Origin: Candidatus Omnitrophota bacterium
Lineage (GTDB): Bacteria; Omnitrophota; Gorgyraeia; Aquiviventales; Aquiviventaceae
Assembly (NCBI GenBank): GCA_030697665.1
Contig: JAUYPJ010000037.1
Location: 28,089 to 92,088, forward strand
Direction of reading: 5' to 3'
DNA length: 64,000 bases
Shown here: positions 7,737-63,717 of the stretch, one piece after another
Numbering within the stretch: position 1 is the first letter of the stretch
How the letters are laid out: every line of letters starts with the position of its first letter
The notes under the pieces: model-generated
What the model was told of the DNA's origin: nothing
What the model saw: only the letters and a program-made list of their open reading frames with translations
The model's database searches: none
Position numbers and translations under genes: made by a program

Positions 7737-8573
7737 TTAGCGAATGATCTCCACGTTGGCGTATGGATGGGTCGTCATCACTTCAGGGAGATCGGAGGGT
7801 TCAGCCCGTTGGGCGACCGGAAATTCCTCCGGGACCATCGGGTGGATGTTGCGCATCTTTCGCTGAGAAGGCCAGGCGAGCCAGACCCGCTCGAACCAGC
7901 CGTCGTGGACCTGATCGGCGACCGAGAAGGTTGAGATCTTCTGCCGCATCTTGGCCTCCGACCTGGCGTACGAGAAATGGTAGAACACGCACCGCTCGGG
8001 TGGAACGAGGTGGCGTGGACCTGGGCTGTTGGTCTTGTTGTCTCCGACGAACCTCGTCTCATGGGGAAACGGCAGGCCCAGGATGCGCCTCGCGCGATGA
8101 ATCTTAAAGACCCTCCAGGGCGTCCACTTCATGACGTCCGGCGGGATGCGGTAGGCGAAGCTCCTCCAGAAGATAACGCACTTGATGTGGAACGTGCCCG
8201 CATCGGGGTGGGCACGGATCTCATCCAGCAGCGCATCAAGATGGTCCGGCCGGTACACCTCGTCCCCATCAACCAGAAAGTAGTAGTCGAATCCATGCTC
8301 GAGACAGTACGCCATGCCGGCCTGGCGATGCGCCACCTCCGTGGCCCATGTTCCGGTCTGGACAACCACGTTCGGATCCTGCCGCGCCAAGGCTCGAACC
8401 ATGTCCTCTGTCCGGTCAGGAAGAAATGGAGCCGGCTGGAGTGACCCGCTGCGATTCCATGGCTGACGGTTCACGTTGACCACCACCTGGTCAACGTGGC
8501 GGCGTACCGACCGAATCGAGTAGGCGATGTACTCTTCCTCGTTGTACACGGAGTAGACGGCGGCGATTTTCAT
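7737..8573 (-). CDS. GT2-like glycosyltransferase
   Basis: SVYNEEEYI, FLVDGDEV, YHFSYARS. Confidence 0.75.
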   Translation of the reverse strand: MKIAAVYSVYNEEEYIAYSIRSVRRHVDQVVVNVNRQPWNRSGSLQPAPFLPDRTEDMVRALARQDPNVVVQTGTWATEVAHRQAGMAYCLEHGFDYYFLVDGDEVYRPDHLDALLDEIRAHPDAGTFHIKCVIFWRSFAYRIPPDVMKWTPWRVFKIHRARRILGLPFPHETRFVGDNKTNSPGPRHLVPPERCVFYHFSYARSEAKMRQKISTFSVADQVHDGWFERVWLAWPSQRKMRNIHPMVPEEFPVAQRAEPSDLPEVMTTHPYANVEIIR

Positions 8574-8674
8574 CCCACCACCTGGCTGTCGCGGCGGGTG
8601 GGGCGAGATTCACGGCAGGGCATGAACCCGCCGCGTCTGCGCCGCAGGCGCAGGCAGCCAGGTGGTGGGATCAT
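8570..8674 (-). mobile_element. ATGA-bounded inverted-repeat relay cassette, copy 1; 34-aa mini-ORF MIPPPGCLRLRRRRGGFMPCRESRPTRRDSQVVG
   Basis: IR ATCCCACCACCTGGCTG / CAGCCAGGTGGTGGGAT; ATGA at both ends overlapping the upstream stop and the downstream start; mobility is inferred. Confidence 0.75.
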
Positions 8675-11346
8675 GCGCGCCGAGGGACCGAGCGCTCCCA
8701 GACCTTCGCCCACTTGAGCAGCTCAATCCCTGCGTAGAATTCGGCGAAGACCAACCCGTGGAGGCCCTCACGGTAGCCAGCCTTCTTGACATAGCTCTTC
8801 CAGAACGTCTTCCAGGGCCTGCGCCAGATCTGACGCCTCAGATCGCGCTCAGCCTGCGGCCCGAGCCTCCGGAGGAGCTCTTCGGCTTGTAGCGTCGTGT
8901 AGCGGTTGTGCCGCGCGACGAACGACGAGAGATCCTCGCATGGATGGTGTTCCACATCGGCCGCCAGCTCCCCCACCGTCCCCCGGATGACCGGACGCTC
9001 GTGCACCACCCCTTCGTACACGGCCCGGTCCCGGCGCACCAGATTTGGAACGGTATAGTACCACCCGCCGTAGCGCATGGGACGATTGAGCAACACGCTG
9101 CGACGATAGAACGAGAAGGCGGCATGAGGGCTCTGGGCTTGAAGCAGCCGCTCCATCGAAGCACGAAACCCCGGCGTGACGACGTCGTCGGCGTCGATCT
9201 GCAGGACCCACTCGCCATGGGCGTGCTGCATCCCCAGGTTGCGGTCGGTGGCAAAGCTGCCGTCAAACGCATGGGACACCACCGTCGCCCCAAACGACCG
9301 GCAGATCTCCGGCGTTCGGTCGGTGCTGGCGCCATCCACGACAATGATCTCGTCCGCCCAGCGCACGCTCTCGAGGCATCGGGCGATCCGTGGCTCCTCG
9401 TTCTTGGTCAGCACGACGACCGAGAGGGTCTCCCGCCCATCAGTTGGGAGCTCAGAACCTGTTATCTGTGGATGGGTTGTCAACGTTGAACGCTGAACGC
9501 TGAACGCTGAACTCGATGCCCAGTACTTGGCCCACTTGAGGAAATGGACCCAGGCGAAGAGCGCAGCGAAGACCAGGCCGTGCATTCCCTCGCGCCAGCC
9601 CTGCTTTTTGACGTAGGATTTCCAAAACAGCTTGAGCGGCCGGAGGAACAGCTGAGAGCGGAGCGCCCACGCCGACAGCTCACGGCGGGCCTGCCGGAGC
9701 AACCGGGCCTCCACATCGGAATAGAAGTTCTGCCGCTCCATGAACTGCGTCAGGCTCTGGAAGGGGTAGTGGTGGATTGGCTGCGCGAGATCGGCGATCG
9801 AACCACGCACCTCCAGCGTCTCATGGACGCTGTGCCCGACGTAGCGGGCCGAGGAGCGTTTGAACAGCTTCACCCCATGCCAGCCAAAGCCTCCGTAGCG
9901 CATCGGGCGCCCAAGAAAGTGGTTCAGCCGATGGACGCGGTAGGCCACGATCGTCCGCTCCTGTTGCACCGTCGAGCGAATCTCGTCCCGCAGGGGCGGC
10001 GGGATGACCTCATCCGCGTCCAACTGGAGGATCCACTGCCCACGCGCCGCCTCGATGCCGGCGTTGCGCTGCTCATCAAAGTCCCCCCCTGAGCGGCGCA
10101 CGATGACCGTAGCTCCGACCTGGCGGCAGTGCTCTCGCGTCCGGTCAGTGCTCTCATCGTCTACCACGACGATCTCATCCACCCAATCCAGGCTCGTGAG
10201 GCAGTTGAGGATTCTGGCCCCTTCGTTTTTCGTGATGATCACGGCGCTGATCGTCGCGCGATCGTCCATGGCGCGTCCTGGATCACCTTCCGCTTGAGGC
10301 ACATCTCCAATGTGTTCCACGGCTGCGCGATGAAGAGGCATGAATCGCTGGAGGCATCTCGCGAACCGTCCTGAGGGAGCGACGATGCGGTGAAACCGCT
10401 TCTTCTTTGTGAGGATTCGCCAGAGCACCGTGAGAGCGCGCCAGGGGCCGCTCAGGCGCACGACGGTCACCTCACGGTGTCTGGGAATGGCGAACTCGAT
10501 GGCCGGGTCACCAAACACCCAGACGCGATGCCCGTCGTTCACCAGATGCCGAATGGATGAGACGGCCCTGTCCAGGACTGGCCCCTGTTGCTCCAGGAGC
10601 ACATACGCGATCCGTTGCGGCCGCGGTCTGCGCCATTTGCGATAGAACCGCTCCCCATTCTCAAGAAACCGCTGCTCCCGGGTCGGGTCGCGCTTCGCCG
10701 TCGCGCTGCCGAGATGGTAGACATAGGCGCCTTCGGCGATCGCGCAGAAATATCCAGCCCGCCGGACGCGGAGCGAATAATCGGCGTCCTCGTAGTACAT
10801 GAACCAGAACGTCTCATCGAGGTATCCCACGCGCTCAAACACCCGCCGAGGCATCAGGAGACAGAACCCCACTGCCCCGGTCGCTTCGAGCCATCGTCCC
10901 TGAAGGGGTTGCAGTCGTCGAGCGACGTCATCCACCGTTTCGCCAGGTTGCGGATGCGCGCCGAACTCGTTGCTCATCGGATTCAGGAGACCGAGCGTCG
11001 GATGTGACGTCGCGACGTGAATCAACTCCGACAACCACCCTGCTGTCACGAGGATGTCGTTGTTGAGCACGCAGATCCAGGGGGCGCGTGTCTGCGCCAG
11101 ACCCGTGTTGATCCCGGCAGCGAACCCATCATTCTGTGGACGGCGGACAACCTCGATCTCAACCCATGGCGTCCCACGAACCTCACTGAGGTACCGCAGG
11201 GTCTCTGGCTCGCTGCTGCCGTTATCCACAATGATGAGCCGGGTGTCGAGCCTCGTGTGGAGCAGGAGGCGTTCCACCCCTGGCTTCAGCAGGTCGGCCC
11301 GATCCCACGTGAGGAGTACCAGATCACAACGCGCTGGTCTCGCCAT
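8671..11346 (-). CDS. Triple-domain GT2 glycosyltransferase fusion
   Basis: Three GT2 starts: CDLVLLTW..IIVDNGS; ISAVIITKNE..LDADE; LSVVVLTKNE..IDADD. Confidence 0.9.
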   Translation of the reverse strand: MARPARCDLVLLTWDRADLLKPGVERLLLHTRLDTRLIIVDNGSSEPETLRYLSEVRGTPWVEIEVVRRPQNDGFAAGINTGLAQTRAPWICVLNNDILVTAGWLSELIHVATSHPTLGLLNPMSNEFGAHPQPGETVDDVARRLQPLQGRWLEATGAVGFCLLMPRRVFERVGYLDETFWFMYYEDADYSLRVRRAGYFCAIAEGAYVYHLGSATAKRDPTREQRFLENGERFYRKWRRPRPQRIAYVLLEQQGPVLDRAVSSIRHLVNDGHRVWVFGDPAIEFAIPRHREVTVVRLSGPWRALTVLWRILTKKKRFHRIVAPSGRFARCLQRFMPLHRAAVEHIGDVPQAEGDPGRAMDDRATISAVIITKNEGARILNCLTSLDWVDEIVVVDDESTDRTREHCRQVGATVIVRRSGGDFDEQRNAGIEAARGQWILQLDADEVIPPPLRDEIRSTVQQERTIVAYRVHRLNHFLGRPMRYGGFGWHGVKLFKRSSARYVGHSVHETLEVRGSIADLAQPIHHYPFQSLTQFMERQNFYSDVEARLLRQARRELSAWALRSQLFLRPLKLFWKSYVKKQGWREGMHGLVFAALFAWVHFLKWAKYWASSSAFSVQRSTLTTHPQITGSELPTDGRETLSVVVLTKNEEPRIARCLESVRWADEIIVVDGASTDRTPEICRSFGATVVSHAFDGSFATDRNLGMQHAHGEWVLQIDADDVVTPGFRASMERLLQAQSPHAAFSFYRRSVLLNRPMRYGGWYYTVPNLVRRDRAVYEGVVHERPVIRGTVGELAADVEHHPCEDLSSFVARHNRYTTLQAEELLRRLGPQAERDLRRQIWRRPWKTFWKSYVKKAGYREGLHGLVFAEFYAGIELLKWAKVWERSVPRRA
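9483..9512. repeat. AACGCTG heptamer tandem repeat in the linker between GT2 domains 2 and 3
   Basis: acgttga acgctga acgctga acgctga. Confidence 0.65.
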
Positions 11347-13266: not shown

Positions 13267-13277
13267 GGAACCAACTC

Positions 13278-16271: not shown

Positions 16272-16282
16272 GGCTGTCCCCT

Positions 16283-18609: not shown

Positions 18610-20450
18610 AGTGCGTCAGTCACGCCTGCGGTCACCACCTTCCAGGTGACCCCTCTTGGCTCGCAGCATCGTTGGATATGCTGCAGCAGATCGCCGGGCG
18701 GATCGGTAATCGCGATCAGGACCTCTCGAACATGGTGCTCCTCAATGACCTTCTGTAGCTGAGCCCGCGTTCCAAACACCGGAGAGCCGTAGATCCGCTC
18801 GCCGAGCTTCCTGAGATCATCATCGAGGAACCCGACCACCCGATACGCGCCTTTGGTCTCGTATTTGAGCGAGCGTAACACACGCGCCCCCGTATCACCG
18901 GCTCCAATGATCAGCGCGGGAACGCCCTGCGTAGCCGCTCCACGGATCCACTCATCCATCAATCGCTCCAGCACACGGGAGCCGACAACCCCAAGGAAGG
19001 TGAGCATCCCGTCAATGACCAACACCGCCCTGGAATACCCCTCGAACCGCCACAGATACAGCAATCCGAGCGCAGAGAGGATTGAGCTGAGCGTGACTGC
19101 TTTCAGAATGGCCGTGACGTCGGAGAGGCTCAGGTAGCGCCAGACCCCTCGGTAGAGGCCGCCTCCTGCAAAACACGCGAGCTTGATCAGCAGGATGAGC
19201 GGCAGGGACTGGACGATGCGCTGCTGGTATTCGCCCGTCAGCGTCCCCTCAAACCGCAAGAGGTGCGCGAAGACTTAGGCGCTGCTGACAACGGAGCAAT
19301 CAACGACGATTTCAAGCAAGCGGCGTTTGTGCAGGAGCATGGTGCCGATCGGTGTCGTCGGAACAGGAAGATGTGATGGCGGCATGCCGCTGTCAGCTTG
19401 TCCCATGCGGTACACCTTCACCTGGGCAAGGTAGAGGCCGCACAGCATCAGGGCGGTCAGCACGGATGACCAGAGCGCGAGGGAGGGGAGCGGCTTGAGG
19501 GTCGTGAAGGCCAGGCTCAACAACCCGAGGCAGATGCTCGCTCCATAGAGCGCCACGACCGTCTGCCGGACGCTCAACCCGAGCACCGCCAGGCGATGCG
19601 AAATGTGATCCGTCCCTCCCGTGAAGGGATGTTGCCGATGGAGCAGACGCTGCACGGTCACAAAACAGGTGTCAAAGATCGGCACCGCCAAGACCAGCGT
19701 GGGCACCGCTAAGATACTGACGAGCTGGGTCGAATGGCGCAAGCTCCCCGTGATGGCCAGGGCGGCCAAGCTCAGCCCAAGGAAATGGCTGCCAGAGTCT
19801 CCCATGAAGATCTTCGCGGGAGGAAAATTGTAGCGCAAGAAGCCCAGACACACGCCGCTCACGATGCCCGCCAACGCCGCCACGACCCACTGGCCGCTCA
19901 GGGCGGCGTGGAGCACGTAGAACCCCGCGGCAATCGCCCCCACACCGGCCGCCAGACCGTCCATGTTGTCCAGGAGGTTGAAGGCGTTCATCACAAAGAC
20001 AAACCATAAGACGGACAGCGGAATGGAGATCCACGCCCAGTGGACGGGCACCAGCCGGATGCCGCTGAGGACGATCCCGCAGCCAATGAGCAGCTGGGCC
20101 ATCAGCTTGGTATACGGAGGAATTCGACGGAAGTCATCGACGAGCCCGAGGACAAAGACGAGGCTCACCCCCCCGAGCAGCGCCACGACCGACGGTTCCC
20201 AGGACACCCACAAGGCGGTCGTCGCGACAAACCCGATAAACATCGCGACCCCGCCCAGCCGGGCGACGACGCGCCTGCCCCAACGTGATTCCACCGGCTT
20301 GACGATCCACCCAAACCGGACGGCGGTCAACCGCACCAGGGGGGTGAGCAGCAGCGTGATGAGCAACGCCGTCAGGCCGGCCGCTCCCACGCGAGTCAGC
20401 TCCTTCGCGGTCTGCGAAAGGATCGGGCCGTCAGCGGGAAGCCAACTCAT
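18606..20450 (-). pseudogene. WecA/MraY-like UndP sugar-1-phosphate transferase fused to a CapD-type N-terminal/CoA-binding domain, interrupted by one in-frame TAA at 19275-19277
   Basis: NAFNLLDNMDGL, NFPPAKIFMGDSG, DHISHRL; reads ...VVSSA*VFAHLLRFEG... in one frame, then LYRGVWRY, IIGAGDTG, GFLDDD. Confidence 0.75.
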
Positions 20451-20602
20451 CCCACGCCCTGCGCCTCACGGCGGCTCGTCACGGTTCCTACGTAGGCCGC
20501 CCTGACGAAGACCACACGACCCTCACAGGGCACTGCCATCTCACTCCTCACGTCTTCGGGCCCCCGCCGGAGGCGGGGGGCCGGCGCAGGGCGTGGGATC
20601 AT
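20447..20602 (-). mobile_element. Relay cassette copy 2; 51-aa mini-ORF MIPRPAPAPRLRRGPEDVRSEMAVPCEGRVVFVRAAYVGTVTSRREAQGVG
   Basis: IR ATCCCACGCCCTGCGCC / GGCGCAGGGCGTGGGAT; ATGA at both ends. Confidence 0.75.
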
Positions 20603-43980: not shown

Positions 43981-45177
43981 TCACACCGCACGGGGCATGC
44001 GGGGCGAGGACCGGCCGATCCACGCCCCGAGGCGATGGGACAACAACCGTACCACGTACTTCTGCCGGCCGATCCGGTGGACCAGCTCCACAAGGAACCG
44101 ACGCACCGCCGGCACGAACATCGGTGACAGCGCCAGACACACGGGATACACCCACACCGTAGGGGACCGTGCCATCCGCCAGCCGCCGCGCAATGCAAAC
44201 CGGTACACCGGCAGGCTTTGGTAGCGTCGCTGAAGAATCCCCATCAGAGCCCCATGGCCCATCCACCAGTACACCCGGTGACGCAGATGAGCGGCCTCAA
44301 GCTGTGTCAGCGCCACGACCCGTTCCACCCGCTGCAGGAACGCCTCCAGCAAATCCAAGGCCTGCTGGACGCTCGCCTGGGATGGGCACGTGTCCCAAAA
44401 CCCCTCCTCCATCCGGAGGACCTGACTCAGCCGCTGGGCTGTTCCCTCAGCATCCAACGACGCCACCAAGGCGTGATGGGCCCGCCGCGCGTTCTCCTGC
44501 TGAACCGCGGCATGGGTTCGGCTCTGCTGCGCCTCATGGACACGTCTGATGATCAACGGCGTTCGGAGGACGACCGCGCTCCAGCGTATTCTCGCCATCG
44601 TGCACCAGAGCGCGTAGTCCTCGCAGAATTTGAAGGATTCATCATAACTGCCCGCAGCCAATGCGGCTGCCCGGCGGAACATCGCCGTCGGGTGGTCAAT
44701 CGGAGAGGCGTACGTAAGGACCGCGCCGAGGAACGAGCCGTAATCCTGGACCTGGCGCATGCCGACGACAGCGGTCTGCCGCCCATCCAACTCCATGTGA
44801 TACAGCCAGGATCCCACCAGCCCCACGTCGGCATGCCGGTCCAACACGGCGACCTGCTGCCGCAGTCGGTCGGGCAGGCACCGGTCATCCTGGTCAAGAC
44901 GGGCGAGGTACGGCGCGCGGGCCAAGACAAGACCCCGATTCAATGACCACACCTGCCCCATGTTACGCTCGTTGCGCACCAGCCGAATCCGGGGATCCGG
45001 ATAGCGCTGGATACAGGCCACCGACTCATCCGTGCTGGCGTCATCGATGATGAGCAGCTCAAAGTCGGTGAACGTCTGGGCGAGAACGCTCTCAATCGCC
45101 TCAGCGAGATACGGCATCCCGTTGTACACCGGCAACAGCACCGTCACGCGCGGATTCGAAGGCGCGTTGGTCGTCAT
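43981..45177 (-). CDS. GT2 glycosyltransferase
   Basis: VLLPVYN, IDDASTD, RLDQDD, CEDYALW. Confidence 0.9.
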   Translation of the reverse strand: MTTNAPSNPRVTVLLPVYNGMPYLAEAIESVLAQTFTDFELLIIDDASTDESVACIQRYPDPRIRLVRNERNMGQVWSLNRGLVLARAPYLARLDQDDRCLPDRLRQQVAVLDRHADVGLVGSWLYHMELDGRQTAVVGMRQVQDYGSFLGAVLTYASPIDHPTAMFRRAAALAAGSYDESFKFCEDYALWCTMARIRWSAVVLRTPLIIRRVHEAQQSRTHAAVQQENARRAHHALVASLDAEGTAQRLSQVLRMEEGFWDTCPSQASVQQALDLLEAFLQRVERVVALTQLEAAHLRHRVYWWMGHGALMGILQRRYQSLPVYRFALRGGWRMARSPTVWVYPVCLALSPMFVPAVRRFLVELVHRIGRQKYVVRLLSHRLGAWIGRSSPRMPRAV

Positions 45178-45290
45178 CCCACGCCCTGGCTGCCCCGCCT
45201 ATTGGCGGGGCGAAACGTCAATGAGAGAAACACGGGGCACCGTTTCGCGGCTCCGCCTTCAGGCGGAGCCCAGCTAGGGCGTGGGATCAT
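45174..45290 (-). mobile_element. Relay cassette copy 3; 38-aa mini-ORF MIPRPSWAPPEGGAAKRCPVFLSLTFRPANRRGSQGVG
   Basis: IR ATCCCACGCCCT(A/G)GCTG; ATGA at both ends; two internal GC hairpins. Confidence 0.75.
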
Positions 45291-46222
45291 CGAGTTGGCG
45301 TTGGCATCCGCGTAAAGTGCTCCAGGAGGTGTCGGACGGCTCGCCGCTCCATGGCAGCCCGTGAGGCGCGCGTCAGTGAGGCGACGTGCGGAGTACAGAG
45401 CACCTGGGGCAATCTTATCAACGGCCCCCTAGAGGGTTCCTGCTCACACACATCGAATGCGGCTGCCGCCAGATGCCCGGATCGGAGCGCCGCCTCGAGG
45501 GCCTGCTCATCAACGAGGTATCCCCGCGAGGTGTTGATGAGCCGACCGCCGGCCTTCATCTGCCCCAACTCTGCGCGGCCCATCAGCACACCTTCTTGTC
45601 GAGGACGGTTCGCGTGGAGCGACACCACATCAGCCTCAGCCAATAGTCGGGGTAGCGGACACCAGTGGGTCGTCTCCGGAACCTCGTGGGGTGCGACGAA
45701 TGGATCTGACACGAGGACGCGTGGCCCAAAAATCCGGAGATACCGTTCCACCGTCCTGCCGATCCGACCAAACCCTACCAGGCCCACCGTCCATTCAGCG
45801 AGCAGCCAGCCGGGACGCTTGACCCACGAGCCCTGTCGGCTGTCTGCGAGGTGTTGGGGCAGGTTCCTCGCCAAGGCCAGGATCATGGCCATGGTCATCT
45901 GTGCAACGGGCTCGGTCACTTCGTCAGGTGTCGTGTACACGGCAATACCTTTCCGGCGCGCCACATCGAGATCGATGGCGTCCATTCCCACGCCGCATCG
46001 GCTGATGCATTGCAGGTGGGGCAGCGCTTCGAGGACCGTGGCATCGTAGGGCTCTACACCCGCCACCACCGCGTCAGCGTCACGAAGTCCCTGGACGAGG
46101 TCCTCTGATGTTAAGCGGCGTCCCAGCTCGTTGACACGAACCTCCCAGCCGGCATCGAGCAAGAGCTGCTTCGGCGTCAGATCGAACTCGCAGAACTGCT
46201 GCAGCGCGACATACACGATCAT
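45287..46222 (-). CDS. D-isomer 2-hydroxyacid (SerA-like) dehydrogenase
   Basis: ISRCGVGMD, GLVGFGRIG, INTSRG, TPHVAS. Confidence 0.88.
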   Translation of the reverse strand: MIVYVALQQFCEFDLTPKQLLLDAGWEVRVNELGRRLTSEDLVQGLRDADAVVAGVEPYDATVLEALPHLQCISRCGVGMDAIDLDVARRKGIAVYTTPDEVTEPVAQMTMAMILALARNLPQHLADSRQGSWVKRPGWLLAEWTVGLVGFGRIGRTVERYLRIFGPRVLVSDPFVAPHEVPETTHWCPLPRLLAEADVVSLHANRPRQEGVLMGRAELGQMKAGGRLINTSRGYLVDEQALEAALRSGHLAAAAFDVCEQEPSRGPLIRLPQVLCTPHVASLTRASRAAMERRAVRHLLEHFTRMPTPTR

Positions 46223-46350
46223 CCCCCCACCTGCTGGTTGGCCGAAGGCCGGTCGCTGTCGCATTCGTCTTCCTGGGGCGACAGCGACCGCTTCGCCTTC
46301 GGCGTGATGTGACGAGCAGGACGGCGAAGCCCAGCAGGTGGGGGGATCAT
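46219..46350 (-). mobile_element. Relay cassette copy 4; 43-aa mini-ORF MIPPPAGLRRPARHITPKAKRSLSPQEDECDSDRPSANQQVGG
   Basis: IR ATCCCCCCACCTGCTGG / CCAGCAGGTGGGGGGAT; ATGA at both ends. Confidence 0.75.
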
Positions 46351-47132
46351 GGGCGCAGGATCTCACTCAAGACCGCTTGTTGGAGGGGATCATCTTCAAG
46401 ATACCGGTTGACCACCGCCACTTCACGCGGCTCGTTGATGGCAGGATAGCCCCTGCTGAACTCGACCGCCCGCAGCAGGATGTCATGCTCCAGGATGCGG
46501 GATTGATCGATTCCCTCGGCCACTTCAAGTGGGGTGCGCGGCAGGACCGTATACTGCTCTAAGAACGCCCGGGTATAGCCGAGGATCCCCACGATACTCC
46601 GAAGCGGCTCATACCCCGGACCCAGCTTCGGCGCCAAGGACGACCAGTCGCGGAAACAGCAGAGGACCTGTCCGGACGCAGAGACGGCGCACTTGACGAT
46701 GGAGGGGTCACTGAGTTCACTCGCCTGCTCGATCATTGTGACTGCGTTCCAGGCCGGTACCGCAGGCTCTGCCTCAATGGCACGAACCATCCGTTCCAAG
46801 TCGCTTGCCAGCACTAAGATCTCGTCACCCTGGACGTTGACCACATGGGTGCAGTCCAACTGACGGGCCGCCTCAGCCACGCGATCGGTCGCGGCCGGAT
46901 GCGCAGGCGACGTCATCACGCACCGCCCGTCGAACCGCTCAACGACTTCTTGGATTTCGCGGTCGCATGTGGCCACGACGACGTCGGAAAACCGCTTGCA
47001 CAGCAGGACGCGTCGGCGGATATGCTCGACCATCGGCAACCCCTGAATGGATAGGAGCGGCTTTCCGGGGAACCGGCTTGAGGCCATGCGGGCCGGGATC
47101 ACAGCGGCCACACGTACCGCAGCAGGAGCCAT
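46347..47132 (-). CDS. KdsB-family (CMP-ulosonate) cytidylyltransferase
   Basis: IPARMASSRFPGKPL, TDRVAEA, NVQGDE. Confidence 0.88.
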   Translation of the reverse strand: MAPAAVRVAAVIPARMASSRFPGKPLLSIQGLPMVEHIRRRVLLCKRFSDVVVATCDREIQEVVERFDGRCVMTSPAHPAATDRVAEAARQLDCTHVVNVQGDEILVLASDLERMVRAIEAEPAVPAWNAVTMIEQASELSDPSIVKCAVSASGQVLCCFRDWSSLAPKLGPGYEPLRSIVGILGYTRAFLEQYTVLPRTPLEVAEGIDQSRILEHDILLRAVEFSRGYPAINEPREVAVVNRYLEDDPLQQAVLSEILRP

Positions 47133-48690: not shown

Positions 48691-49448
48691 ATCGTCATGG
48701 CGGTGAAGCCGCCGTCCACCGTCACGATGGAACCCGTCACGAAGCTGGCCGCATCGGAGGCCAGCCACAGCACCGCGCCGATAAGCTCCTCGGGTTGACC
48801 AAACCGACCCATTGGGGTGTGGTTGAGGATGGCGGTCTTGCGCGGCTCGTCAATGAAGTGCTGCATGCTCCAGGCGGTTGGGAAGAATCCTGGCCGCAGG
48901 GCGTTCACCCGCACATTGAACGGCGCCCACTCCCGCGCAAGGTTCTGCGTCAGATTGGCCACGCCCGCCTTGGACGTCGAGTAGACAAACGCCTTCGAGA
49001 GTGGCGGACCGTTGGACACCGAGGTGAAGTTGATGATGCTGCCGGCGCGCTGTCGAATCATGGCCTCACCGAAGACCTGACAACTCAAGAATGTTCCCAG
49101 GAGGTTCACCCGCGTGATCCGATCGAACTCCTCGAGTGAGATCTCGAAGAATGTCGTCGGCGCATTTGCGCCGGCCCCGTTGAGCAGGACGTCGATCCGC
49201 CCATGCTCCCCCAGGATTTCTTCCCGAGCACGGATGAGATCGTCCTTCGACGTCACGTCGCACCGGATGTAGGGAAGCGTGCCGGCGATGCCTGGATTGT
49301 CCTTCGTCGGCTGGGAGATATCGAGCAGGAACACCGACATCCCTGCCTCACGCATCGCTTCCGCCGCCGTTGAGCAGAGGTACCCCCCGCCCCCAATGAC
49401 CGCGGCCACTTTTCCGCGCAGATTGAAGCGCTCCTCAACTGTCGGCAT
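48687..49448 (-). CDS. Short-chain dehydrogenase/reductase (sugar-acid oxidoreductase-like)
   Basis: IGGGGYLC, NGAG, YSTSK, TPMGRFG, VDGG. Confidence 0.9.
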   Translation of the reverse strand: MPTVEERFNLRGKVAAVIGGGGYLCSTAAEAMREAGMSVFLLDISQPTKDNPGIAGTLPYIRCDVTSKDDLIRAREEILGEHGRIDVLLNGAGANAPTTFFEISLEEFDRITRVNLLGTFLSCQVFGEAMIRQRAGSIINFTSVSNGPPLSKAFVYSTSKAGVANLTQNLAREWAPFNVRVNALRPGFFPTAWSMQHFIDEPRKTAILNHTPMGRFGQPEELIGAVLWLASDAASFVTGSIVTVDGGFTAMTI

Positions 49449-51987: not shown

Positions 51988-52929
51988 TCAGCTTCTTGCC
52001 TCTTCGACTGGCTGCCATGAGTCGCGCTGCATCACCCCGCTCGAACGGCTCCATTGGAACTGCGCCACCACCCGCGGCCCCGCGTCGCGCGCCCTGGACA
52101 ATCGTACGGCATCCCAGGCCTGTCGCGCCGCGTGCTTCAACGCGTAGTCCCAGGTGTACCTCGGATTCTGGTCCGGACGATCCACAATCGTCACTCGCCC
52201 AGGATGCGCTGTGCGTCTGAACACGCCAAGGGCTGTCTCCGCGGTTCCTGTCGAGGCCACGAACAGCTCCTTGGGCACAAACCGGCTGTGCCTCCCGCCG
52301 AGGACCGTGTGGCTTCGGTAGACAGCGACCTCAGCTTCCGGCGCTTCGGCCATGACCGCGTCGATGAGCTCCTGAAGGTTCACCACGATAAACGGCATCC
52401 ACCCGTCATAGTGATATTGGCAGGAGTGTTCTGGATTCCACTCGGTCGGGCCGACGTCCCGCGTGCGGCATCGGACGATGACCGCTTCCTCTGCGATTCG
52501 GATGAGCTCAGAGAGGAAGGCGAGGGGCTCGGCCTGGTGCTGGATGACGTCCTTGGCGTACACGATCTGCGGATGCTCCGGAAGACCACGGGCCCGGAGG
52601 GTCGCGCTGACGGACGCGGCGGGGTCGCTCACGACGAATGTCCCCTCCGGGTACTTCTGTTTGGCTCGCGCGATGGCCGGACCGGAGACGTCCAGACCGC
52701 AGTAGCGCGCGCGGGGATAGCGACGGCGCAGGTAGCGGTAGAACTCTCCGGTGGCGCATCCGAGTTCCAGCAGGTCCAGCGGACGATCCGTGGCAACCCG
52801 CTCGTTCAACAGCCGGACGTCGTTGAAGCCTTCCTGGTTACGGACCAGGTTGCGCCGATCAAGCTGCCAGCGTCCGTCGAATGCCTCCGCATGCCGCTGG
52901 TGTTGCCAATCGTCGTACCACGAGTTCAT
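51988..52929 (-). CDS. Class I SAM-dependent methyltransferase
   Basis: LLELGCATG, YCGLDVS, DVIQH. Confidence 0.82.
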   Translation of the reverse strand: MNSWYDDWQHQRHAEAFDGRWQLDRRNLVRNQEGFNDVRLLNERVATDRPLDLLELGCATGEFYRYLRRRYPRARYCGLDVSGPAIARAKQKYPEGTFVVSDPAASVSATLRARGLPEHPQIVYAKDVIQHQAEPLAFLSELIRIAEEAVIVRCRTRDVGPTEWNPEHSCQYHYDGWMPFIVVNLQELIDAVMAEAPEAEVAVYRSHTVLGGRHSRFVPKELFVASTGTAETALGVFRRTAHPGRVTIVDRPDQNPRYTWDYALKHAARQAWDAVRLSRARDAGPRVVAQFQWSRSSGVMQRDSWQPVEEARS

Positions 52930-53069
52930 CCCACCACCTGTTCATGGGCCGGTTCAATCATATCGAGAGATTGCAGCGAACGAACCGGCCCTGGTTCGCT
53001 GCAGGGTGGTTTCAAGCTATCGGGCGAACCGCTCCGCCTACGGCGGAACTGAACAGGTGGTGGGATCAT
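52926..53069 (-). mobile_element. Relay cassette copy 5; 47-aa mini-ORF MIPPPVQFRRRRSGSPDSLKPPCSEPGPVRSLQSLDMIEPAHEQVVG
   Basis: IR ATCCCACCACCTGTTCA / TGAACAGGTGGTGGGAT; ATGA at both ends; several stop triplets occur but none in the relay frame. Confidence 0.78.
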
Positions 53070-57661: not shown

Positions 57662-57668
57662 TCGCTGG

Positions 57669-58304
57669 CTACGTCCGGTTCGACGAGGACGCCCTCGCAT
57701 TGAGGGTCGACGTCTCCCACTTGTTGCCCTGCACCATCAGGCGGGGATCGGACACAAGGGCATGCCAGACGACCGCCTGAAACGCCTCGGTGTGCGGGGT
57801 AACCGATTGCTCGTTGACCGTCGGGATCACGAGCACGATGTCTCCGCGCTGTTTCGTGTACCCGCCGTCACGCCCGACGATGCCCAGGACGTCCATGCCG
57901 CGGCTCTTGGCTTCGTCGATGGCGGCCACCAGGTTGGCGCTGATGTTGCGCTCCCGGCTGCCTCCGCCGACCGACAGGATGAACAGCGCGTCACGCTCAC
58001 AAGCCCGGCTCACCTTCAGCCAGGCTGCAAACACGGTCTCCCACCCCTCGTCGTTCGTCCGCGCCGTCAACTCCGAGACGTTGTCCACAGGACTGTACGC
58101 TTCGATCCCGGCGAGCTTGCGAAAATCGTTCACCGCATGGCTGCAATTTCCTGCGCTCCCGCCCACGCCGCACAGAAAGAGCCGCCCGCCTTCATCACGC
58201 AACCGGACAAGCCGTTCCACCATTTGGTCGATCACCCCCACATCCAATCGCCGCGCGATGTCCGCCGCTTCCGCGAAATGCCGGGAGAGAAATGTGTCGT
58301 TCAT
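57669..58304 (-). CDS. SIS-domain phosphoheptose isomerase (GmhA-like)
   Basis: GVGGSAGNCSH, TARTND, LSVGGG, HTEAFQ. Confidence 0.85.
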   Translation of the reverse strand: MNDTFLSRHFAEAADIARRLDVGVIDQMVERLVRLRDEGGRLFLCGVGGSAGNCSHAVNDFRKLAGIEAYSPVDNVSELTARTNDEGWETVFAAWLKVSRACERDALFILSVGGGSRERNISANLVAAIDEAKSRGMDVLGIVGRDGGYTKQRGDIVLVIPTVNEQSVTPHTEAFQAVVWHALVSDPRLMVQGNKWETSTLNARASSSNRT

Positions 58305-58319
58305 CGTCGGTCCTTCCGA

Positions 58320-59882: not shown

Positions 59883-60871
59883 CCAGCACCCTCCTGTTTT
59901 GATGACACCTTCTTCCCGACCAGCCGTGCAAATGAACTCAAGCCCTGCCGCTGCAAGAACGCCTGCAGCGCCTCGTGGGTTTGCGCATCGGCCTCGATGA
60001 GCTGTCGCTCGAAGCGTGACACCGGCAGCGACGGATTGTGCTGGAGGTGGGCGCGAACCACCTCGACGTCCAGCACACCAGGTGTACTGACTTCGATCAA
60101 CGTCAACCCGGCTTGTGTCAGGAGGCGTGAAAGACCCTGGAGGCTAAAACAGTTCGTGCGATCCGGGGGACAGAGATACAGGTTGGCAAGCCCCAGCACC
60201 GCCAAGTCAAATCCCGAACACACCAACGCCGTCACAAACAGTAATCCGCCCTCCTCCATCCGATTGACCACTCCCTGCAACAGCGCCACCGGATCATCGA
60301 CACGATCCAGGGATTCCAGCAGAATCGCGGCGTGAACCCGAGGAGCATCAGCGCAGTTGCCGGATCCCGTGGCCACGGTCATTTCATCAACCATCAGCAC
60401 GTCTGAACACATCCCGCTATCCTTCAGCAGATGCGTGAAGGTGCTTGGGGGTGTGGCGCCCTCCAGGACAATCGGCTGACGAACCCCCTGCAGTCGGAGC
60501 GTATCCCGAATCCATTCCAGTTTGGGTGTGTAGACGTGATCGGTCCGCGACTGCGCCAATCCTGGGTAGAACCCCTCAGACGAAAACCGGTGACGGCTCA
60601 CGTCCTGCAGCAACCTCGCCCACGACACGGCGTCTGGCAGCTCCTCCAGAAAGAGGCTCCCGCTCTCCTGACACCGCAGATAGCGCAGCCCACCGATCTC
60701 GCCGAACGGCTCAAGCGATGCGCCACCGATCGGTGACCGCTGACGACGCCTGGTGGGGCCGCGGAGCGCCTGTCGCGTCATCTCGAGACAGTAGGCGCGA
60801 TACCGCAGCAGCCCCTCCAGGGGCTTGACAGAGGACAAGGGGAAACTCGCGCTGGTCTGGATGGTTCTCAT
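59879..60871 (-). CDS. Methyltransferase-like protein with degenerate motifs
   Basis: ESLDRVDDP, GFDL..LG, PPDRTNCFS, TPGVLDV; canonical SAM motif I not intact. Confidence 0.6.
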   Translation of the reverse strand: MRTIQTSASFPLSSVKPLEGLLRYRAYCLEMTRQALRGPTRRRQRSPIGGASLEPFGEIGGLRYLRCQESGSLFLEELPDAVSWARLLQDVSRHRFSSEGFYPGLAQSRTDHVYTPKLEWIRDTLRLQGVRQPIVLEGATPPSTFTHLLKDSGMCSDVLMVDEMTVATGSGNCADAPRVHAAILLESLDRVDDPVALLQGVVNRMEEGGLLFVTALVCSGFDLAVLGLANLYLCPPDRTNCFSLQGLSRLLTQAGLTLIEVSTPGVLDVEVVRAHLQHNPSLPVSRFERQLIEADAQTHEALQAFLQRQGLSSFARLVGKKVSSKQEGAG

Positions 60872-61890
60872 GGCACCGTCCGTTTCGTGGCCTGGCGCTC
60901 GGCCACGGCGTAGACATCCCGGATGACCTGCATGACCCGTTGGGCCTCCTCGAGCGTCCCGTGGGTGGCCGGACGTCCTTCGTGGGCGGCCAGAAGAAAT
61001 TCATTGACCTCTTTGTCCCATGACTCGTCACGGTCGAAGTGGATGATTTCCTCGCGCGGATTGCCCAGCGCCAGGGCCTCATCTTCGAACTGGCGCTTGC
61101 CGATGACGAGCTGCTCACGGCCGTAGCTACCGGTCTGTGACAACAACCCACTGGCCACCAGGTAGCCATTGCGACAGCCGACCTCGATGCGGAACGTGTG
61201 TTTCCAGAACGTCGCGGAAGAATGGAGGAACGCCGGCACCCCCTGCTCGGAGCGGAGCAGGACGAAGGCGTTGTCTTCCAACCCCGTTCCCCAGAAGGAA
61301 TCCGCCAGGACGGCATCGACGACGGTGAGCGGCCCAAGGAAGAGGTGAAACAGATCCAGCATATGGATGCCCTGATCCAGCAAAATGCCCCCGCCGGCGA
61401 TGTCCGGATTGGCGCGCCAGCTCTCACGGTACCGGATGCCGCCTGACTTGCCGTAGGTCCCCTTGAGGTACAGCACCTCGCCTAGGCCGCCCTCGCCGAT
61501 GAGCGACTTGGCCGCCTGGACAGACGGGTGCAACCGGTGGTTGAACCCGAACACCAGCGTATGATTAGGGACCGCGGCCGCGGTCTCGGCGATCCGACAG
61601 AAATCCTCCCAGTTGCGTCCCGGCGGCTTTTCACAAAACACCCGGCGGCACCGGCGCAGCCCTTCCACGCACAGATCCGCGGTGACATTATTCGGCGTAC
61701 AAACGAACACCACGTCAGTGTCGTCCCACGGAATGGGAGCTGCCGGAGGGAGCAGCACCCCATCGAGCCCGACGGTCGATGGATCCACGCCGTGATCCAC
61801 GATGGTGATGCCGCGCACCAGGGGATGTTGACGCAGGACCTGATAGCGGATCTTGCCCATATACCCATAGCCAAACAGGAGACAGTTCAT
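60868..61890 (-). CDS. Gfo/Idh/MocA oxidoreductase
   Basis: GYGYMG, CEKP, GFNHR, GGGILLDQGIH. Confidence 0.92.
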   Translation of the reverse strand: MNCLLFGYGYMGKIRYQVLRQHPLVRGITIVDHGVDPSTVGLDGVLLPPAAPIPWDDTDVVFVCTPNNVTADLCVEGLRRCRRVFCEKPPGRNWEDFCRIAETAAAVPNHTLVFGFNHRLHPSVQAAKSLIGEGGLGEVLYLKGTYGKSGGIRYRESWRANPDIAGGGILLDQGIHMLDLFHLFLGPLTVVDAVLADSFWGTGLEDNAFVLLRSEQGVPAFLHSSATFWKHTFRIEVGCRNGYLVASGLLSQTGSYGREQLVIGKRQFEDEALALGNPREEIIHFDRDESWDKEVNEFLLAAHEGRPATHGTLEEAQRVMQVIRDVYAVAERQATKRTVP

Positions 61891-62033
61891 CCCCCCACCT
61901 GCTGGAGGCTCCGCCCGAGGCGGAGCCGTGGGTTGGCTTCACGTGATAAAGCCGGCTGCCAGCCAACCCTGGCAGTGCCGGTCACTGCGTTTGTAGCGAT
62001 GGCGGCACTGCCGCCAGTAGGTGGGGGGATCAT
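61887..62033 (-). mobile_element. Relay cassette copy 6; 48-aa mini-ORF MIPPPTGGSAAIATNAVTGTARVGWQPALSREANPRLRLGRSLQQVGG
   Basis: IR ATCCCCCCACCT(A/G)CTGG; ATGA at both ends. Confidence 0.75.
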
Positions 62034-63613
62034 CCCACCGATGCCCCCGGACATCCAACCGCCTGGAGGAAACGATCAATGGCTGCGGCATCCACGGCCC
62101 TCGTGTAGCGATTCACGTACTCCACCGTCCTGCGCCATTGCTGCATGGCCTGTGCTTCATCCACGGTCAGGTACTGCTGCAGCGCCTCGCTCATCGCTTC
62201 AGGCGAATCAACACGTTCACGCCAACCCGTCACCTCGAACAGGGGATCCACATCCGGGTAGTCCGCGTCCTGGAGGTAGATCGGCTTCAATCCGTGGAGG
62301 ACCGCGTACAAGACGGCGGAGGAGCCGCGGTAGAGCACCACCGATGAGCGCGCAAAGTCCTCGCCGATCGACGGGCGATCAGAAACCTCCATGTTCGGCA
62401 ATGCGGACGGCTCGCCGGCCAGGTGCGGACGCAGGCGATGAAACGGCATCGCGGGGTGACACCGCAAGATGAAGCGGTGATCGGTCGCCAGCGACGCCGC
62501 CTGCATGGCAAAATTGAACAGGAGCTTGGCCTCACGGATCACCCCAGTCTCCGGAACCACCAGCACCGTCCGCCGCTGGAACTGCGGGCTGGGCGCCGCT
62601 GGGGCGTGATGGTCGCTGCGCCGGAAGGTCCCGAAGGACACCAGGCGGCTCCCAAGCGGTTGGTGCCCGGACGCCATCATCTGCAGCGGGATCTCTCCCA
62701 GGCAGAGCACGACATCGGGTGTTGAGCGCTCCCAGGAGTTGCGGTTCGGGGACAAGAGCGACAACGAGTGCGGCATGATGACCGTATGTTGGTATCCCAC
62801 GGTGACGCATGTCGCCTCGGCAGCTTTCGCCCCATGCCAGGCGGGCTTCTCCCAGGGCTGCCCCTCATAGAGCGTGACGAAGACCTTTGCCCCCCAGGTC
62901 TTCACGGCCTTGCGCGCAATGGAGAAGTGCAAGATGTTGCGCACGGTAATGGGCTGCAGGCTGTCCAGGCAGGCCGCCGCCGCCACCCTTGCCAGCGACG
63001 GCTGCTCGGCGCGCTGCGCCAGGCGACGCAGGGCCACGGCCGTGGCGAATTGGCGGACGGCCGTCACCAGCGGCGCCCAGATCGGCACCAGCAGTTGCTC
63101 CGGAACGGTGCGGATCGTCGGGCGTCGTAGCAGCGTTTTCGCAAAGGCCGTGTCAAGCCGCTCCCGCGTGTCGCCGCACAACACGAGGCAGCTGATCCCG
63201 CGGGCTTCCAGTTGCTGCGGCAGCGTCCCGTAATAGAAATCCTCCGTCCGATGGAGGGCCTCCGGACCGAAGCCCCATGTTTTCAAGATGACGGTTGCCG
63301 GCTCGCGCGTGAGACGCCGGAGGTCGCGCCACACCTGCGGCTTCACCCACAACAGGCCGAGGCTCTCACGAGCGGCGAACAGGACGCATCTCACCCACCG
63401 GGCCACCAGACCCAACGGCGACGGAAGGGTCAGCGGTGCCGGCCCCATCAGCCATAGGTGGTCAGGAGGCACCGCGTGCCGGGGATGAACGGTGGAGAGT
63501 CCCAGGACGGGCAACCGCGGGCACAGACGTCGCACCTCATACATCAGCTCAGTCAATGCGGCGTAGCGCTCGAGCCACCGACGAGGCTCCGCTGGCGTGG
63601 CAGATGCGATCAT
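62030..63613 (-). CDS. Hypothetical protein with a GT-B-like C-terminus (possible ulosonate transferase)
   Basis: YEGQPWEK, GYQH, LRCHP, YRGSSAVLYAVL.GLKP. Confidence 0.55.
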   Translation of the reverse strand: MIASATPAEPRRWLERYAALTELMYEVRRLCPRLPVLGLSTVHPRHAVPPDHLWLMGPAPLTLPSPLGLVARWVRCVLFAARESLGLLWVKPQVWRDLRRLTREPATVILKTWGFGPEALHRTEDFYYGTLPQQLEARGISCLVLCGDTRERLDTAFAKTLLRRPTIRTVPEQLLVPIWAPLVTAVRQFATAVALRRLAQRAEQPSLARVAAAACLDSLQPITVRNILHFSIARKAVKTWGAKVFVTLYEGQPWEKPAWHGAKAAEATCVTVGYQHTVIMPHSLSLLSPNRNSWERSTPDVVLCLGEIPLQMMASGHQPLGSRLVSFGTFRRSDHHAPAAPSPQFQRRTVLVVPETGVIREAKLLFNFAMQAASLATDHRFILRCHPAMPFHRLRPHLAGEPSALPNMEVSDRPSIGEDFARSSVVLYRGSSAVLYAVLHGLKPIYLQDADYPDVDPLFEVTGWRERVDSPEAMSEALQQYLTVDEAQAMQQWRRTVEYVNRYTRAVDAAAIDRFLQAVGCPGASVG

Positions 63614-63717
63614 CCCCCCACCTGCCTGCCAGCCGGAGGCTGGCGAACAGCCGCGCGTCGAGTACTCCATGTGTTCGCGGCTCGCCTCTGGCGAGCCCAG
63701 GTAGGTGGGGGGATCAT
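63610..63717 (-). mobile_element. Relay cassette copy 7; 35-aa mini-ORF MIPPPTWARQRRAANTWSTRRAAVRQPPAGRQVGG
   Basis: IR ATCCCCCCACCT(A/G)CCTG; ATGA at both ends. Confidence 0.75.

Follow-up and report, generated by a model that had tools for sequence, protein, structure and literature searches.

The seven hairpin-rich repeats in the window (the whole 64,000-nucleotide stretch of DNA analysed) belong to a family that is probably a non-autonomous, MITE-like mobile family, the insertions of which would relay translational coupling as mini-cistrons. Its members share a defined anatomy, are flanked by a short target duplication, occupy orthologous junctions that are empty or independently filled in relatives, lie at gene boundaries and carry an open frame governed by a mod-3 rule of length. 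The sequence-only reading of this DNA saw in the repeats a MITE-like family with inverted repeats and duplicated targets, located at stop/start overlaps, and this was borne out. It lacked the main point, namely that the elements are ORFs of length 2 mod 3 that would relay the coupling.

Copies, anatomy and fold

A site-by-site reading of the window located all seven elements at the coordinates originally claimed for them. On the minus (coding) strand each copy reads xTGA-TCCC(A/C)C(C/G)(A/C)CCT...AGG..G.GGGA-TGA, and according to the ORF list each occupies precisely the interval that separates the TGA stop of one minus-strand ORF from the ATG of the following one (7/7). The body is defined as TCCC..GGGA and its coordinates are given on the plus strand of the window. 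Element 1 (8570..8674, minus strand) has a body of 98 nt (8573-8670; 2 mod 3) with 34 codons. The upstream glycosyltransferase gene ends in a TGA (8673-8671) that overlaps the ATG of the mini-ORF (8674-8672), and the stop TGA of the mini-ORF (8572-8570) overlaps in turn the new ATG (8573-8571) with which the downstream gene begins. The other six elements likewise lie on the minus strand. Element 2 (20447..20602) consists of a 149-nt body (20450-20598) between target duplications (TSD) at 20599-20601 and 20447-20449, with 51 codons and the arm core CACGCCC/GGGCGTG; here the stop codon of the upstream epimerase gene comes one codon sooner (20604-20602; cTGATGA, a -1 overlap), as had been noted. 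The core CACGCCC recurs in element 3 (45174..45290; body 45177-45286, 110 nt; TSD 45287-45289 and 45174-45176; 38 codons). CCCCACC was found in element 4 (46219..46350; body 46222-46346, 125 nt; TSD 46347-46349 and 46219-46221; 43 codons), in element 6 (61887..62033; body 61890-62029, 140 nt; TSD 62030-62032 and 61887-61889; 48 codons), the mini-ORF of which encodes MIPPPTGG...QQVGG, and in element 7 (63610..63717; body 63613-63713, 101 nt; TSD 63714-63716 and 63610-63612; 35 codons). Element 5 (52926..53069; body 52929-53065, 137 nt; TSD 53066-53068 and 52926-52928; 47 codons) carries the core CACCACC.

The same repeat is present in approximately 65 copies in the genome from which the window derives (an Omnitrophota MAG of 2.18 Mb, from an uncultured bacterium of groundwater), comprising 56 paired copies plus variants, and hundreds more occur in relatives, 110 of them within 574,085 nt of 80 other Omnitrophota loci. 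The carriers fall into two distant lineages of Candidatus Omnitrophota. Scanning the own genome for arm pairs without regard to their flanks yielded 76 pairs compared to 33 in a reversed-not-complemented control. Each copy is bounded by a 16-bp terminal inverted repeat (TIR; TCCCMCVMCCTR...), and element length ranges from 56 to 173 nt, apart from a single copy of 289 nt. They are spread as single units over most contigs, between housekeeping genes, and tandem copies are rare in the family. The claim that interiors are unrelated holds among the seven window copies but not genome-wide, where subfamilies appear. No two copies are identical, the best full-length pair showing 97.3% identity, so that recent movement of the elements is not demonstrated.

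The family was not recognised by the sequence-only reading, and this agrees with our searches: Rfam gave no match at the gathering score over the window, and at E <= 1 over 45100-46420 a snoRNA model alone, located outside the elements. Literature searches returned neither a description of this hairpin-repeat family nor any paper on Omnitrophota repeats, and the arm pattern had no match in viral_contigs, where a phage vector was considered. Integron attC sites have RYYYAAC...GTTRRRY core sites and form arrays beside intI; attC was rejected as a candidate on the basis of the ends TCCC...GGGA and of copies scattered between housekeeping genes.

Folding of element 1 gave -81.3 kcal/mol (z = -8.49), and none of 200 shuffled sequences was as stable. 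The co-variation of the arms described earlier was confirmed with the 53 TGA-flanked copies, which were paired without regard to complementarity: positions 1-8, 10 and 11, including the variable positions 5, 7 and 8, are Watson-Crick in 53/53. Positions 13-16, which played no part in finding the copies, form Watson-Crick pairs of CG, TA and GC types in 157-163 of 173 copies, and position 17 pairs in 10/173. Mismatches within the arms are of mixed type (U-G at position 9, A-C at position 12). Consensus folds of two subfamilies contain 48 and 46 pairs, of which 3 and 5 are compensated. The sense strand was the more stable in 30 cases and the antisense strand in 23 (p = 0.29), so that the folds do not distinguish between selection acting on RNA and selection acting on single-stranded DNA.

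Reading frame of the proposed mini-cistron

Of 173 copies, 149 have a length of 2 mod 3 (47/57 in the own genome, 102/116 elsewhere; binomial p = 8e-47), and the bias persists when counted by sequence cluster (101/121, p = 8e-30). In 154/173 copies the frame entered from the old start codon is open up to the right-hand TGA. Separated by origin, this left-xTG frame is open in 52/57 own and 102/116 other copies, compared to 29 and 25 of 57 own and 37 and 46 of 116 other copies for the remaining two frames. In genomes of 44-52% GC the interiors have a GC content of 47%, yet 35/38 copies are 2 mod 3. The mini-ORF starts with ATG, GTG or TTG in 53/56 copies, reads M-I-P-P-P...Q-V-V-G-stop and forms ATGA overlaps with both the upstream stop and the downstream start. 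The three copies with a TGG duplication all have L = 78 (0 mod 3), creating an in-frame fusion, as the relay model demands wherever the duplicated triplet is no stop codon. At three junctions the copy contains internal stops and has L = 1 mod 3. Open frames of length 2 mod 3 were also obtained where no downstream gene was called (7/8 of the copies classified as "stop only" and 4/5 as "neither"); as the rule holds there too, it may be inherited from source copies instead of being maintained at each site.

Open frames and regular starts could also be expected if the mini-ORFs encoded functional small proteins and the repeats were a small-protein gene family. We regard this as barely tenable, as conservation is limited to the ends encoded by the arms (MIPPP, QVVG), the interiors are unrelated Arg/Ala/Gly-rich strings that track the hairpins, the seven window peptides had no Pfam match at E <= 1, and variation within subfamilies peaks in loops whatever the codon position. 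ORFs of at least 75 codons opening with the left arm were also observed; they represent host genes fused to remnants, not transposases.

The coupling relay that we favour would proceed as follows. The element would be moved by an enzyme of DDE type that cuts its target with a 3-nt stagger; the duplicated 3 bp are nearly always a TGA, belonging either to an NTGA stop/start overlap or to a start codon followed by A. The old start codon together with the left arm opens the mini-ORF (Met-Ile-Pro-Pro-Pro...). As the element lacks stops in this frame and is 2 mod 3 in length, the mini-ORF ends at the right-hand TGA (...Gln-Val-Val-Gly-stop). This TGA in turn overlaps a new ATG made of the last A of the element and the following TG. 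Two ATGA overlaps thus link the mini-ORF to the gene before it and to the gene after it, which would render the insertion silent for translation. Judging from the sequence, ribosomes probably translate the mini-ORF and thereby relay coupling through a very stable hairpin, in which the 16-bp stem is predicted to close two or three further hairpins (approximately -80 kcal/mol). Since the stem would bury the new ATG and the SD-like AGGUGG, translation of the downstream gene should continue to require ribosomes that come from upstream. Such a read-through design would let elements live in operons without breaking them, a selfish element thereby colonising the most constrained spots of a streamlined genome, among them rpoB-rpoC, pyrH-frr and pyrB-pyrC, by means of its own start/stop overlaps and a reading-frame rule, and would offer a natural test bed for termination-reinitiation across strong RNA structure. 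For annotation, "hypothetical proteins" of 30-55 codons between operon genes may be such repeats, and ORFs running through elements, for example 45287..46366 and 62030..63670, are over-extended.

Target duplication, occupied junctions and mobilisation

The sequence-only reading proposed a duplication of ATGA (or TGA); the duplicated target is 3 bp, in most cases TGA, and not ATGA. In the own genome 59/76 arm pairs have identical 3-nt flanks, namely TGA/TCA (53), TGG/CCA (3), TTA, CTA and CGA (1 each), and two further arm pairs are flanked by CGA|TGA. TAA was found duplicated twice in other Omnitrophota genomes, giving six duplicated triplets overall (TGA, TGG, TTA, CTA, CGA, TAA). The base 5' of the left TGA is A in only 40 of 56 copies (G 11, C 3, T 2), the left flank thus being GTGA, CTGA or TTGA in 16/56, and the right flank is ATGA in all, its A always being the last base of the element. 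The duplication of several triplets besides TGA shows that the target is truly duplicated and that a stop/start constraint is not the whole explanation.

Empty orthologous sites, the comparison proposed along with the original claim, were found at two junctions. Between rpoB and rpoC, 22 family loci showed a -4 overlap in 13 cases, a -1 overlap in 3 and an element in 3, and the interiors of these elements (own genome, G010, G017) differ. Among 28 pyrH-frr loci, five contain an element, with a different interior and arm core in each, and six an unoccupied -4 overlap. Logan contigs from four groundwater runs contained no clean empty-site allele, only short pieces and repeat-driven joints. Size (56-289 nt), copy number (approximately 65 in 2.18 Mb), a mini-ORF of 18-55 codons as sole ORF, the 16-bp terminal stem, and duplications of six triplets together with empty sites elsewhere (rpoB-rpoC, pyrH-frr) are those of a MITE family. 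The elements might also serve as insertion markers for Omnitrophota populations.

Of the 56 TGA-flanked own copies, 29 lie at both a stop and a start, 14 at a start only, 8 at a stop only and 5 at neither. Unoccupied TGA sites in the same genome number 198 at stop/start overlaps and 10,680 in intergenic DNA, and unoccupied ATGA sites 130 and 2,278, respectively, all site classes being approximate as they derive from a home-made codon-usage gene caller. The claimed specific insertion at coupled overlaps is inseparable from selective survival, and the start-only (14/56) and stop-only (8/56) copies depart from it. We infer that the enrichment at boundaries is due at least partly to selection.

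A different explanation of this location is a host-serving structured RNA module kept by positive selection, with mobility ancient or incidental. It could act as a switch that regulates coupling, or as an intercistronic hairpin for processing (e.g., by RNase III) or stabilisation. Within subfamilies stems are conserved and loops and linkers vary freely, the arms are identical across genomes of 44-70% GC, and enrichment at boundaries is approximately 70-fold or more over intergenic ATGA, for which tolerance alone is no explanation. Moreover, the right arm, judged by the anti-SD consensus, resembles an extended SD (AGGUGGUG) at short spacing to the AUG. Nevertheless, the several duplicated triplets and the element-free xTGA overlaps at the corresponding junctions of relatives show that insertions took place, interiors at the same junction are unrelated in different genera, rpoB-rpoC lacks an element in most relatives, and Rfam offers no matching RNA. 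We therefore consider a host module improbable and retain the mobile mini-cistron as the preferred reading.

The absence of a transposase from the window, as claimed, was confirmed: matches to DDE_Tnp_1, Y1_Tnp, rve and IS110 in the own genome lie on other contigs (C14, C110, C49, C125, C139, C27 and C39). Neither the own genome nor 574 kb of other Omnitrophota loci, all from incomplete MAGs, yielded an IS-like arm pair at 330-6000 bp spacing or a parent IS with the same ends, and no DDE-type enzyme for the element was found; the long arm pairs scanned were neighbouring short elements with a gene between them. In five element-rich, incomplete MAGs (G000, G234, G111, G023, G011), RVT_1, DDE_Tnp_4 and TnpB were each found in 0/5, and rve and IS110 each in 1/5; DDE_Tnp_1 was present in 1/5 of a similar set of incomplete MAGs (G234, G111, G023, G011, G005). 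The RVT_1 result lends no support to RNA-mediated spread. Multi-copy subfamilies each occur in a single orientation relative to TGA, which is not predicted by a symmetric TIR transposase.

This strict orientation beside an asymmetric target, together with hairpin-rich palindromes whose arm complementarity is itself conserved, would fit a family akin to REPINs or PATEs, which an HUH tyrosine transposase of RAYT or IS200/IS605 type would mobilise in single-stranded form, and Y1_Tnp genes of approximately 200-270 codons occur in 25/35 family genomes. However, the matching TGG, TTA, CTA, CGA and TAA flanks indicate a staggered cut with repair, which HUH elements do not make. The only Y1 gene of the own genome is N-terminally truncated with no arms nearby, the element-rich G023, G020, G015 and G004 (incomplete MAGs) gave no Y1_Tnp match, and several element-free genomes do possess Y1. 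Movement by such an enzyme is thus very unlikely, and the REPIN/RAYT part of the sequence-only reading finds no support, since the elements have a TSD and their distribution is not followed by that of Y1 transposases.

As none of seven enzyme families tested is common to element-rich genomes, a novel system is conceivable. In this speculative and rather doubtful scenario, a mobilising system outside the known transposase families would aim insertion mechanistically at start/stop overlaps, might sense single-stranded or ribosome-exposed ATGA, and would use the conserved arms in two roles, as sites of recombination and as the element's own ribosome binding site. If true, this would represent a mobile element designed wholly as a portable, self-coupling mini-cistron.

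Comparison with known repeat systems

Several repeat families resemble the Omnitrophota elements in part. Correia/nemis MITEs of Neisseria and ERIC also bear TIRs and are co-transcribed with their neighbours, the TIRs pairing in mRNA (PMC10969869). In contrast to the present family, Correia elements duplicate TA, have no frame constraint, lie off start and stop codons and carry promoter and IHF signals. Rickettsia palindromic elements (RPEs) are, in the account of the same source, palindromic mobile repeats of similar size (approximately 100-150 bp) that are likewise kept open and are translated; they are inserted in frame within host genes, to whose products they add peptide segments, whereas the Omnitrophota elements are separate intergenic mini-cistrons with their own start/stop overlaps (PMC10969869). 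DDE elements of the IS5/PIF-Harbinger (PHIS) superfamily, with its MITEs, are described in PMC4482050 as creating 3-bp duplications of fixed pattern (TWA, ANT, CWG, TNA), and TGA would fit TNA. The TGG and CGA duplications fall outside TNA, and searches for DDE_Tnp_1 and DDE_Tnp_4 genes revealed none with matching ends. Like REP/REPIN-RAYT sequences, the elements are abundant extragenic palindromes within operons; REPINs make no target duplication and depend on RAYT, and neither feature applies here. An IS200/IS605-derived PATE was ruled out by the perfect TIRs, the matching non-TGA flanks and the lack of TnpB from the five element-rich genomes.

The closest parallel is provided by MIRUs (mycobacterial interspersed repetitive units), repeats of 40-100 bp noted for forming tandem arrays. 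According to reviews that cite Supply et al. (1997), MIRUs are inserted at start codons with an ORF coupled at -4 nt (PMC12548453, PMC3184786). Both families are short, GC-rich intra-operon repeats whose ORF ends lie at -4 spacing with the flanking genes, have short flanking direct repeats and empty and filled sites suggestive of transposition, and are linked to no known transposase (PMC12548453, PMC3184786). In the Omnitrophota family, too, the ORF of the repeat overlaps the stop and the start of the flanking operon genes. Compared by description, it differs from MIRUs by single units, a perfect 16-bp TIR, a 3-bp TSD, a multi-hairpin interior, the strict 2-mod-3 length and its occurrence in Omnitrophota. 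The principle has already been described for mycobacterial MIRUs, and the TIR-bearing Omnitrophota family, which matches no Rfam or Pfam family, would carry it beyond the single genus in which it is known, into a candidate phylum and to elements with true TIRs.

Element ends, target duplication and arms

In the genome carrying the window (2.18 Mb in 148 contigs, 63.5% GC; the window spans 28089-92088 of contig C59), nearly all window genes are oriented on the minus strand, and the scanned genes flanking the elements encode glycosyltransferases, epimerases and other sugar-pathway enzymes. Reading each site bore out the seven elements located by the sequence-only reading (8570-8674, 20447-20602, 45174-45290, 46219-46350, 52926-53069, 61887-62033 and 63610-63717). 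On the coding (minus) strand all of them read xTGA/TCCC...GGGA/TGA; the upstream ORF ends on the left TGA, except for copy 2, where its stop lies one codon earlier, and according to the window ORF list the downstream ORF is opened by the ATG formed at the right junction.

Scanning the genome for motif plus complementarity yielded 58 candidates, and motif-only arm pairing resulted in 56 elements and 33 unpaired arm-like sites; among the latter, several represent elements in which one arm is mutated, and three are tRNA genes. A flank-blind scan, matching TCCC plus 10 nt to its own reverse complement, detected 76 pairs versus 33 in the reversed control. TGA/TGA flanks (or TCA/TCA, other strand) were present in 53 of the 76 pairs; bona fide members with other flanks carry TGG/TGG (two copies), CCA/CCA, TTA/TTA, CTA/CTA and CGA/CGA, and two are flanked by CGA/TGA. 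Across 56 copies, the base preceding the left TGA was A in 40, G in 11, C in 3 and T in 2, and the base preceding the right TGA was always the element's own A. These flank triplets and preceding bases show that the element body is TCCC...GGGA, that the duplication comprises 3 bp and that every insertion creates an ATG at its right end. The earlier proposal of a MITE-like family that duplicates its target at gene overlaps is retained, but not the ATGA size of that duplication.

Tandem or nested copies joined as ...GGGATGATCCC... were observed at C38:~33815 and C104:~76245 of this genome, at the rpoB-rpoC junction of the relative G017 (locus L189) and in locus L131; here, the ATGA from one insertion appears to have been hit a second time. 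A T follows the TGA at 22 of the 56 own-genome sites. In addition, the native frr start ATGATCCC (Met-Ile-Pro), compared at pyrH-frr junction loci L034, L037, L038, L041, L043 and L051, equals the element's left junction both at filled junctions and at the empty site of the relative G002. Based on these two observations, the target may extend to TGAT(CC).

Element 1 folds with -81.3 kcal/mol (z = -8.49), the mean over 53 copies being -84.6 kcal/mol. Within the outer stem of 16 bp, positions 1-8, 10 and 11 are paired in all 53 copies, which were picked regardless of complementarity; position 12 shows A opposite C in 18 and position 9 U-G in 8 of the 53. Positions 13-16, which played no part in detecting the 173 copies (57 from this genome and 116 from others), are paired in 157-163 of the 173 by several pair types, and position 17 in 10. 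Closely related interiors bear different, fully compensated arm cores (four types in the 142-nt subfamily) and the prevailing core varies from genome to genome; constraint therefore acts on arm complementarity itself. Sense and antisense folds were equally stable (30 against 23, p = 0.29); RNA-level and DNA-level selection are therefore indistinguishable.

Reading frame and position at gene boundaries

A length of 2 mod 3 was seen for 47 of 57 own copies and, in other genomes, for 102 of 116 (149/173, p = 8e-47); counted per sequence cluster, this holds for 101 of 121 (p = 8e-30), where the lengths take 27 different values between 56 and 173 nt. The frame starting at the left xTG is stop-free to the right junction in 52 of the 57 and 102 of the 116 copies, the remaining two frames being open in 29 and 25 own copies and in 37 and 46 of the others. 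Due to the 2-mod-3 length, this open frame ends exactly at the right-hand TGA, overlapping the new ATG. As the frame runs from the left xTG to that stop, each element is predicted to be a mini-cistron of ~18-55 codons, a feature overlooked by the sequence-only reading. The encoded peptides start with M(V/L)-I-P-P-P (or I-P-Q-P, I-P-R-P) and end with Q-V-V-G, Q-V-G-G or Q-G-V-G, ends that are simply the arms in translation. Interior peptide strings are unrelated, and the seven window peptides showed no Pfam match at E <= 1.

Two internal controls fit this model. The three copies with a TGG duplicate, which is not a stop, have a length of 78 nt (0 mod 3), and the old ATG is therefore in frame with the gene. 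Among carriers of 44-52% GC, interior sequence has drifted to 47% GC; 35 of 38 copies nevertheless keep the 2-mod-3 length, and the majority have an open frame. The final codons (...QVVG-stop, with the ATGA overlap kept) of upstream genes at C46:~3410-3426, C110:~48815-48831 and C53:~8386-8402 are formed by lone right arms. Lone left arms likewise supply the opening codons of genes downstream, as with MIPQP... in a ribulose-phosphate epimerase-like ORF (C78:3915). Such lone arms look like element remnants taken into coding sequence and also fit the mini-cistron model. We consider it probable that such a relay mini-ORF design is what the sequences encode.

Mechanical ORF calls at 45287-46366 and 62030-63670 (minus) begin at upstream GTG or ATG codons. 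Since the mini-ORF region has no stop in that frame either, the genes downstream are made to reach back across elements 4 and 7. N-termini in genomes of this kind will be placed too far upstream by automatic annotation.

Placement was classified for the 56 TGA-flanked copies using a self-written gene caller based on codon usage (2,034 genes, 85% coding). Both a called stop and a called gene frame were found for 29 copies, a start only for 14, a stop only for 8 (one being rpoC running off the contig) and neither for 5. Unoccupied TGA sites numbered 198 at stop/start overlaps (130 ATGA) and 10,680 in intergenic regions (2,278 ATGA), corresponding to occupancy of roughly one overlap in eight versus one intergenic site in two thousand. 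The only preferences in the target logo were for A or G in position -1 and, weakly, for T in position +1, and boundary enrichment exceeds what sequence preference alone explains. Either boundaries are targeted by means invisible in the sequence, or copies elsewhere are quickly lost and boundary copies are removable only precisely. The open frame and 2-mod-3 length also occur in the 'stop only' and 'neither' classes, indicating that this property derives at least partly from the source copies.

Mobility and carriers

Elements occupy the housekeeping junctions pyrH-frr, pyrB-pyrC, rpoB-rpoC, dxs-gltX, glyA-nrdR and radA-PIN. The empty orthologous sites that the sequence-only reading had proposed to look for are present in relatives at rpoB-rpoC and pyrH-frr. 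Among 22 rpoB-rpoC loci of the same taxonomic family, 13 show a plain -4 overlap (xTGA), three a -1 overlap, two a 2-nt spacer and one an unclear state; an element is present in three (own genome, G010 and G017), with differing interiors and as a tandem pair in G017. At pyrH-frr, 5 of 28 loci hold an element, interior and arm core differing among all five, and six show an unoccupied -4 overlap, including G002 (...AAATGATCCCGCTC). Within the genome, 39 of 57 copies have a full-length relative and the closest pairs share 97.3, 96.4 and 95.6% identity; subfamilies exist without a very recent burst. The family is, or was, mobile.

Two neighbouring observations concern these junctions. In L201 (G004:C84), rpoC starts with ATGAGCCCACCACCTGTT; apart from this arm-like N-terminus, the -4 overlap there is plain. 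The G017 pyrH-frr spacer (L046) holds two copies of another palindromic repeat, GTCCCACCTGATTTGC...GCAAATCA..GGTGGGAC, whose arm core resembles TCCCACC and which may represent a related family with shorter arms.

Transposase-family genes of this genome comprise four of the DDE_Tnp_1 family, one of the rve family, one of IS110 type and a truncated Y1 gene of IS200-like kind. Direct inspection revealed no family arms at the ends of the DDE_Tnp_1 and Y1 genes, and genome-wide scans no arm motif near the rve and IS110 genes on their contigs. None of seven enzyme families was common to the element-rich genomes, which are incomplete MAGs. Y1_Tnp is among these seven and a target duplication is present, and the REPIN analogy of the sequence-only reading is not supported. 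The sole Y1_Tnp gene (C139:7031-7273, L017) lacks the first 40 profile positions and is set in visibly AT-richer sequence; at a stated genome contamination of 5.94%, this gene may represent either the decayed copy of an IS200-like element or DNA of foreign or contaminant origin. Cuts with a 3-nt stagger are typical for enzymes of the DDE type. For the IS5/PIF-Harbinger superfamily, 3-bp duplications of fixed pattern are characteristic according to the relevant passage of PMC4482050, and from the duplication alone we infer a possible link to such enzymes.

Carrier counts are lower bounds, as the search pattern is narrow. Exact arms with an 80-110 nt gap were found on at least 114 contigs of the species-representative collection, 80 of which were made into loci. 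Among the matches listed, the titles are nearly always those of groundwater MAGs of Candidatus Omnitrophota or Omnitrophica, and a few carry the label Planctomycetales, Planctomycetia, Elusimicrobia, Nitrospira or 'uncultured bacterium'. A degenerate pattern with the gap restricted to 60-90 nt matched in 16 of 24 further genera belonging to the family, and in none of 16 genomes that represent 16 different families elsewhere in the order and class. A phylum-wide sample gave 12 of 401 genomes: the own genome, three of four others of its family, six in f69 (a low-GC family of another class) and singles in two further families. Such patchiness over two clades, combined with arms that are identical, is suggestive of either horizontal transfer or numerous losses.

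Relation to other repeats and known systems

A second kind of intergenic repeat lies in the window at 720-831, 2887-2977 and 4932-5124, consisting of palindromic arrays with ~7-nt units (CCATAGT/ACTATGG and GTGACA/TGTCAC). Genome-wide, seven of nine arrays of a third type (GATTGCG/CGCAATC) lie in short ORFs whose start overlaps a stop and whose stop overlaps a start; for the other two types, the same is true of just 4 of 31 and 2 of 14 arrays.

Covariance-model searches of the window gave no Rfam match, and literature searches found no published description of the Omnitrophota family. The coupling-preserving principle is already in print for mycobacterial interspersed repetitive units (MIRUs), in the passage on them in a review (PMC12548453), and a 2011 review describes MIRUs, in the part concerned, with tetranucleotide direct repeats, imperfect TIRs and ORFs overlapping their neighbours (PMC3184786). 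Rickettsia palindromic elements, the other translated palindromic repeat, are located within genes according to the relevant part of PMC10969869, whereas the Omnitrophota elements lie between genes. Measured against these passages, the strategy of preserving coupling is shared with MIRUs and known; new are its occurrence in a different phylum, the clean TIR/TSD anatomy and the quantified frame rule.
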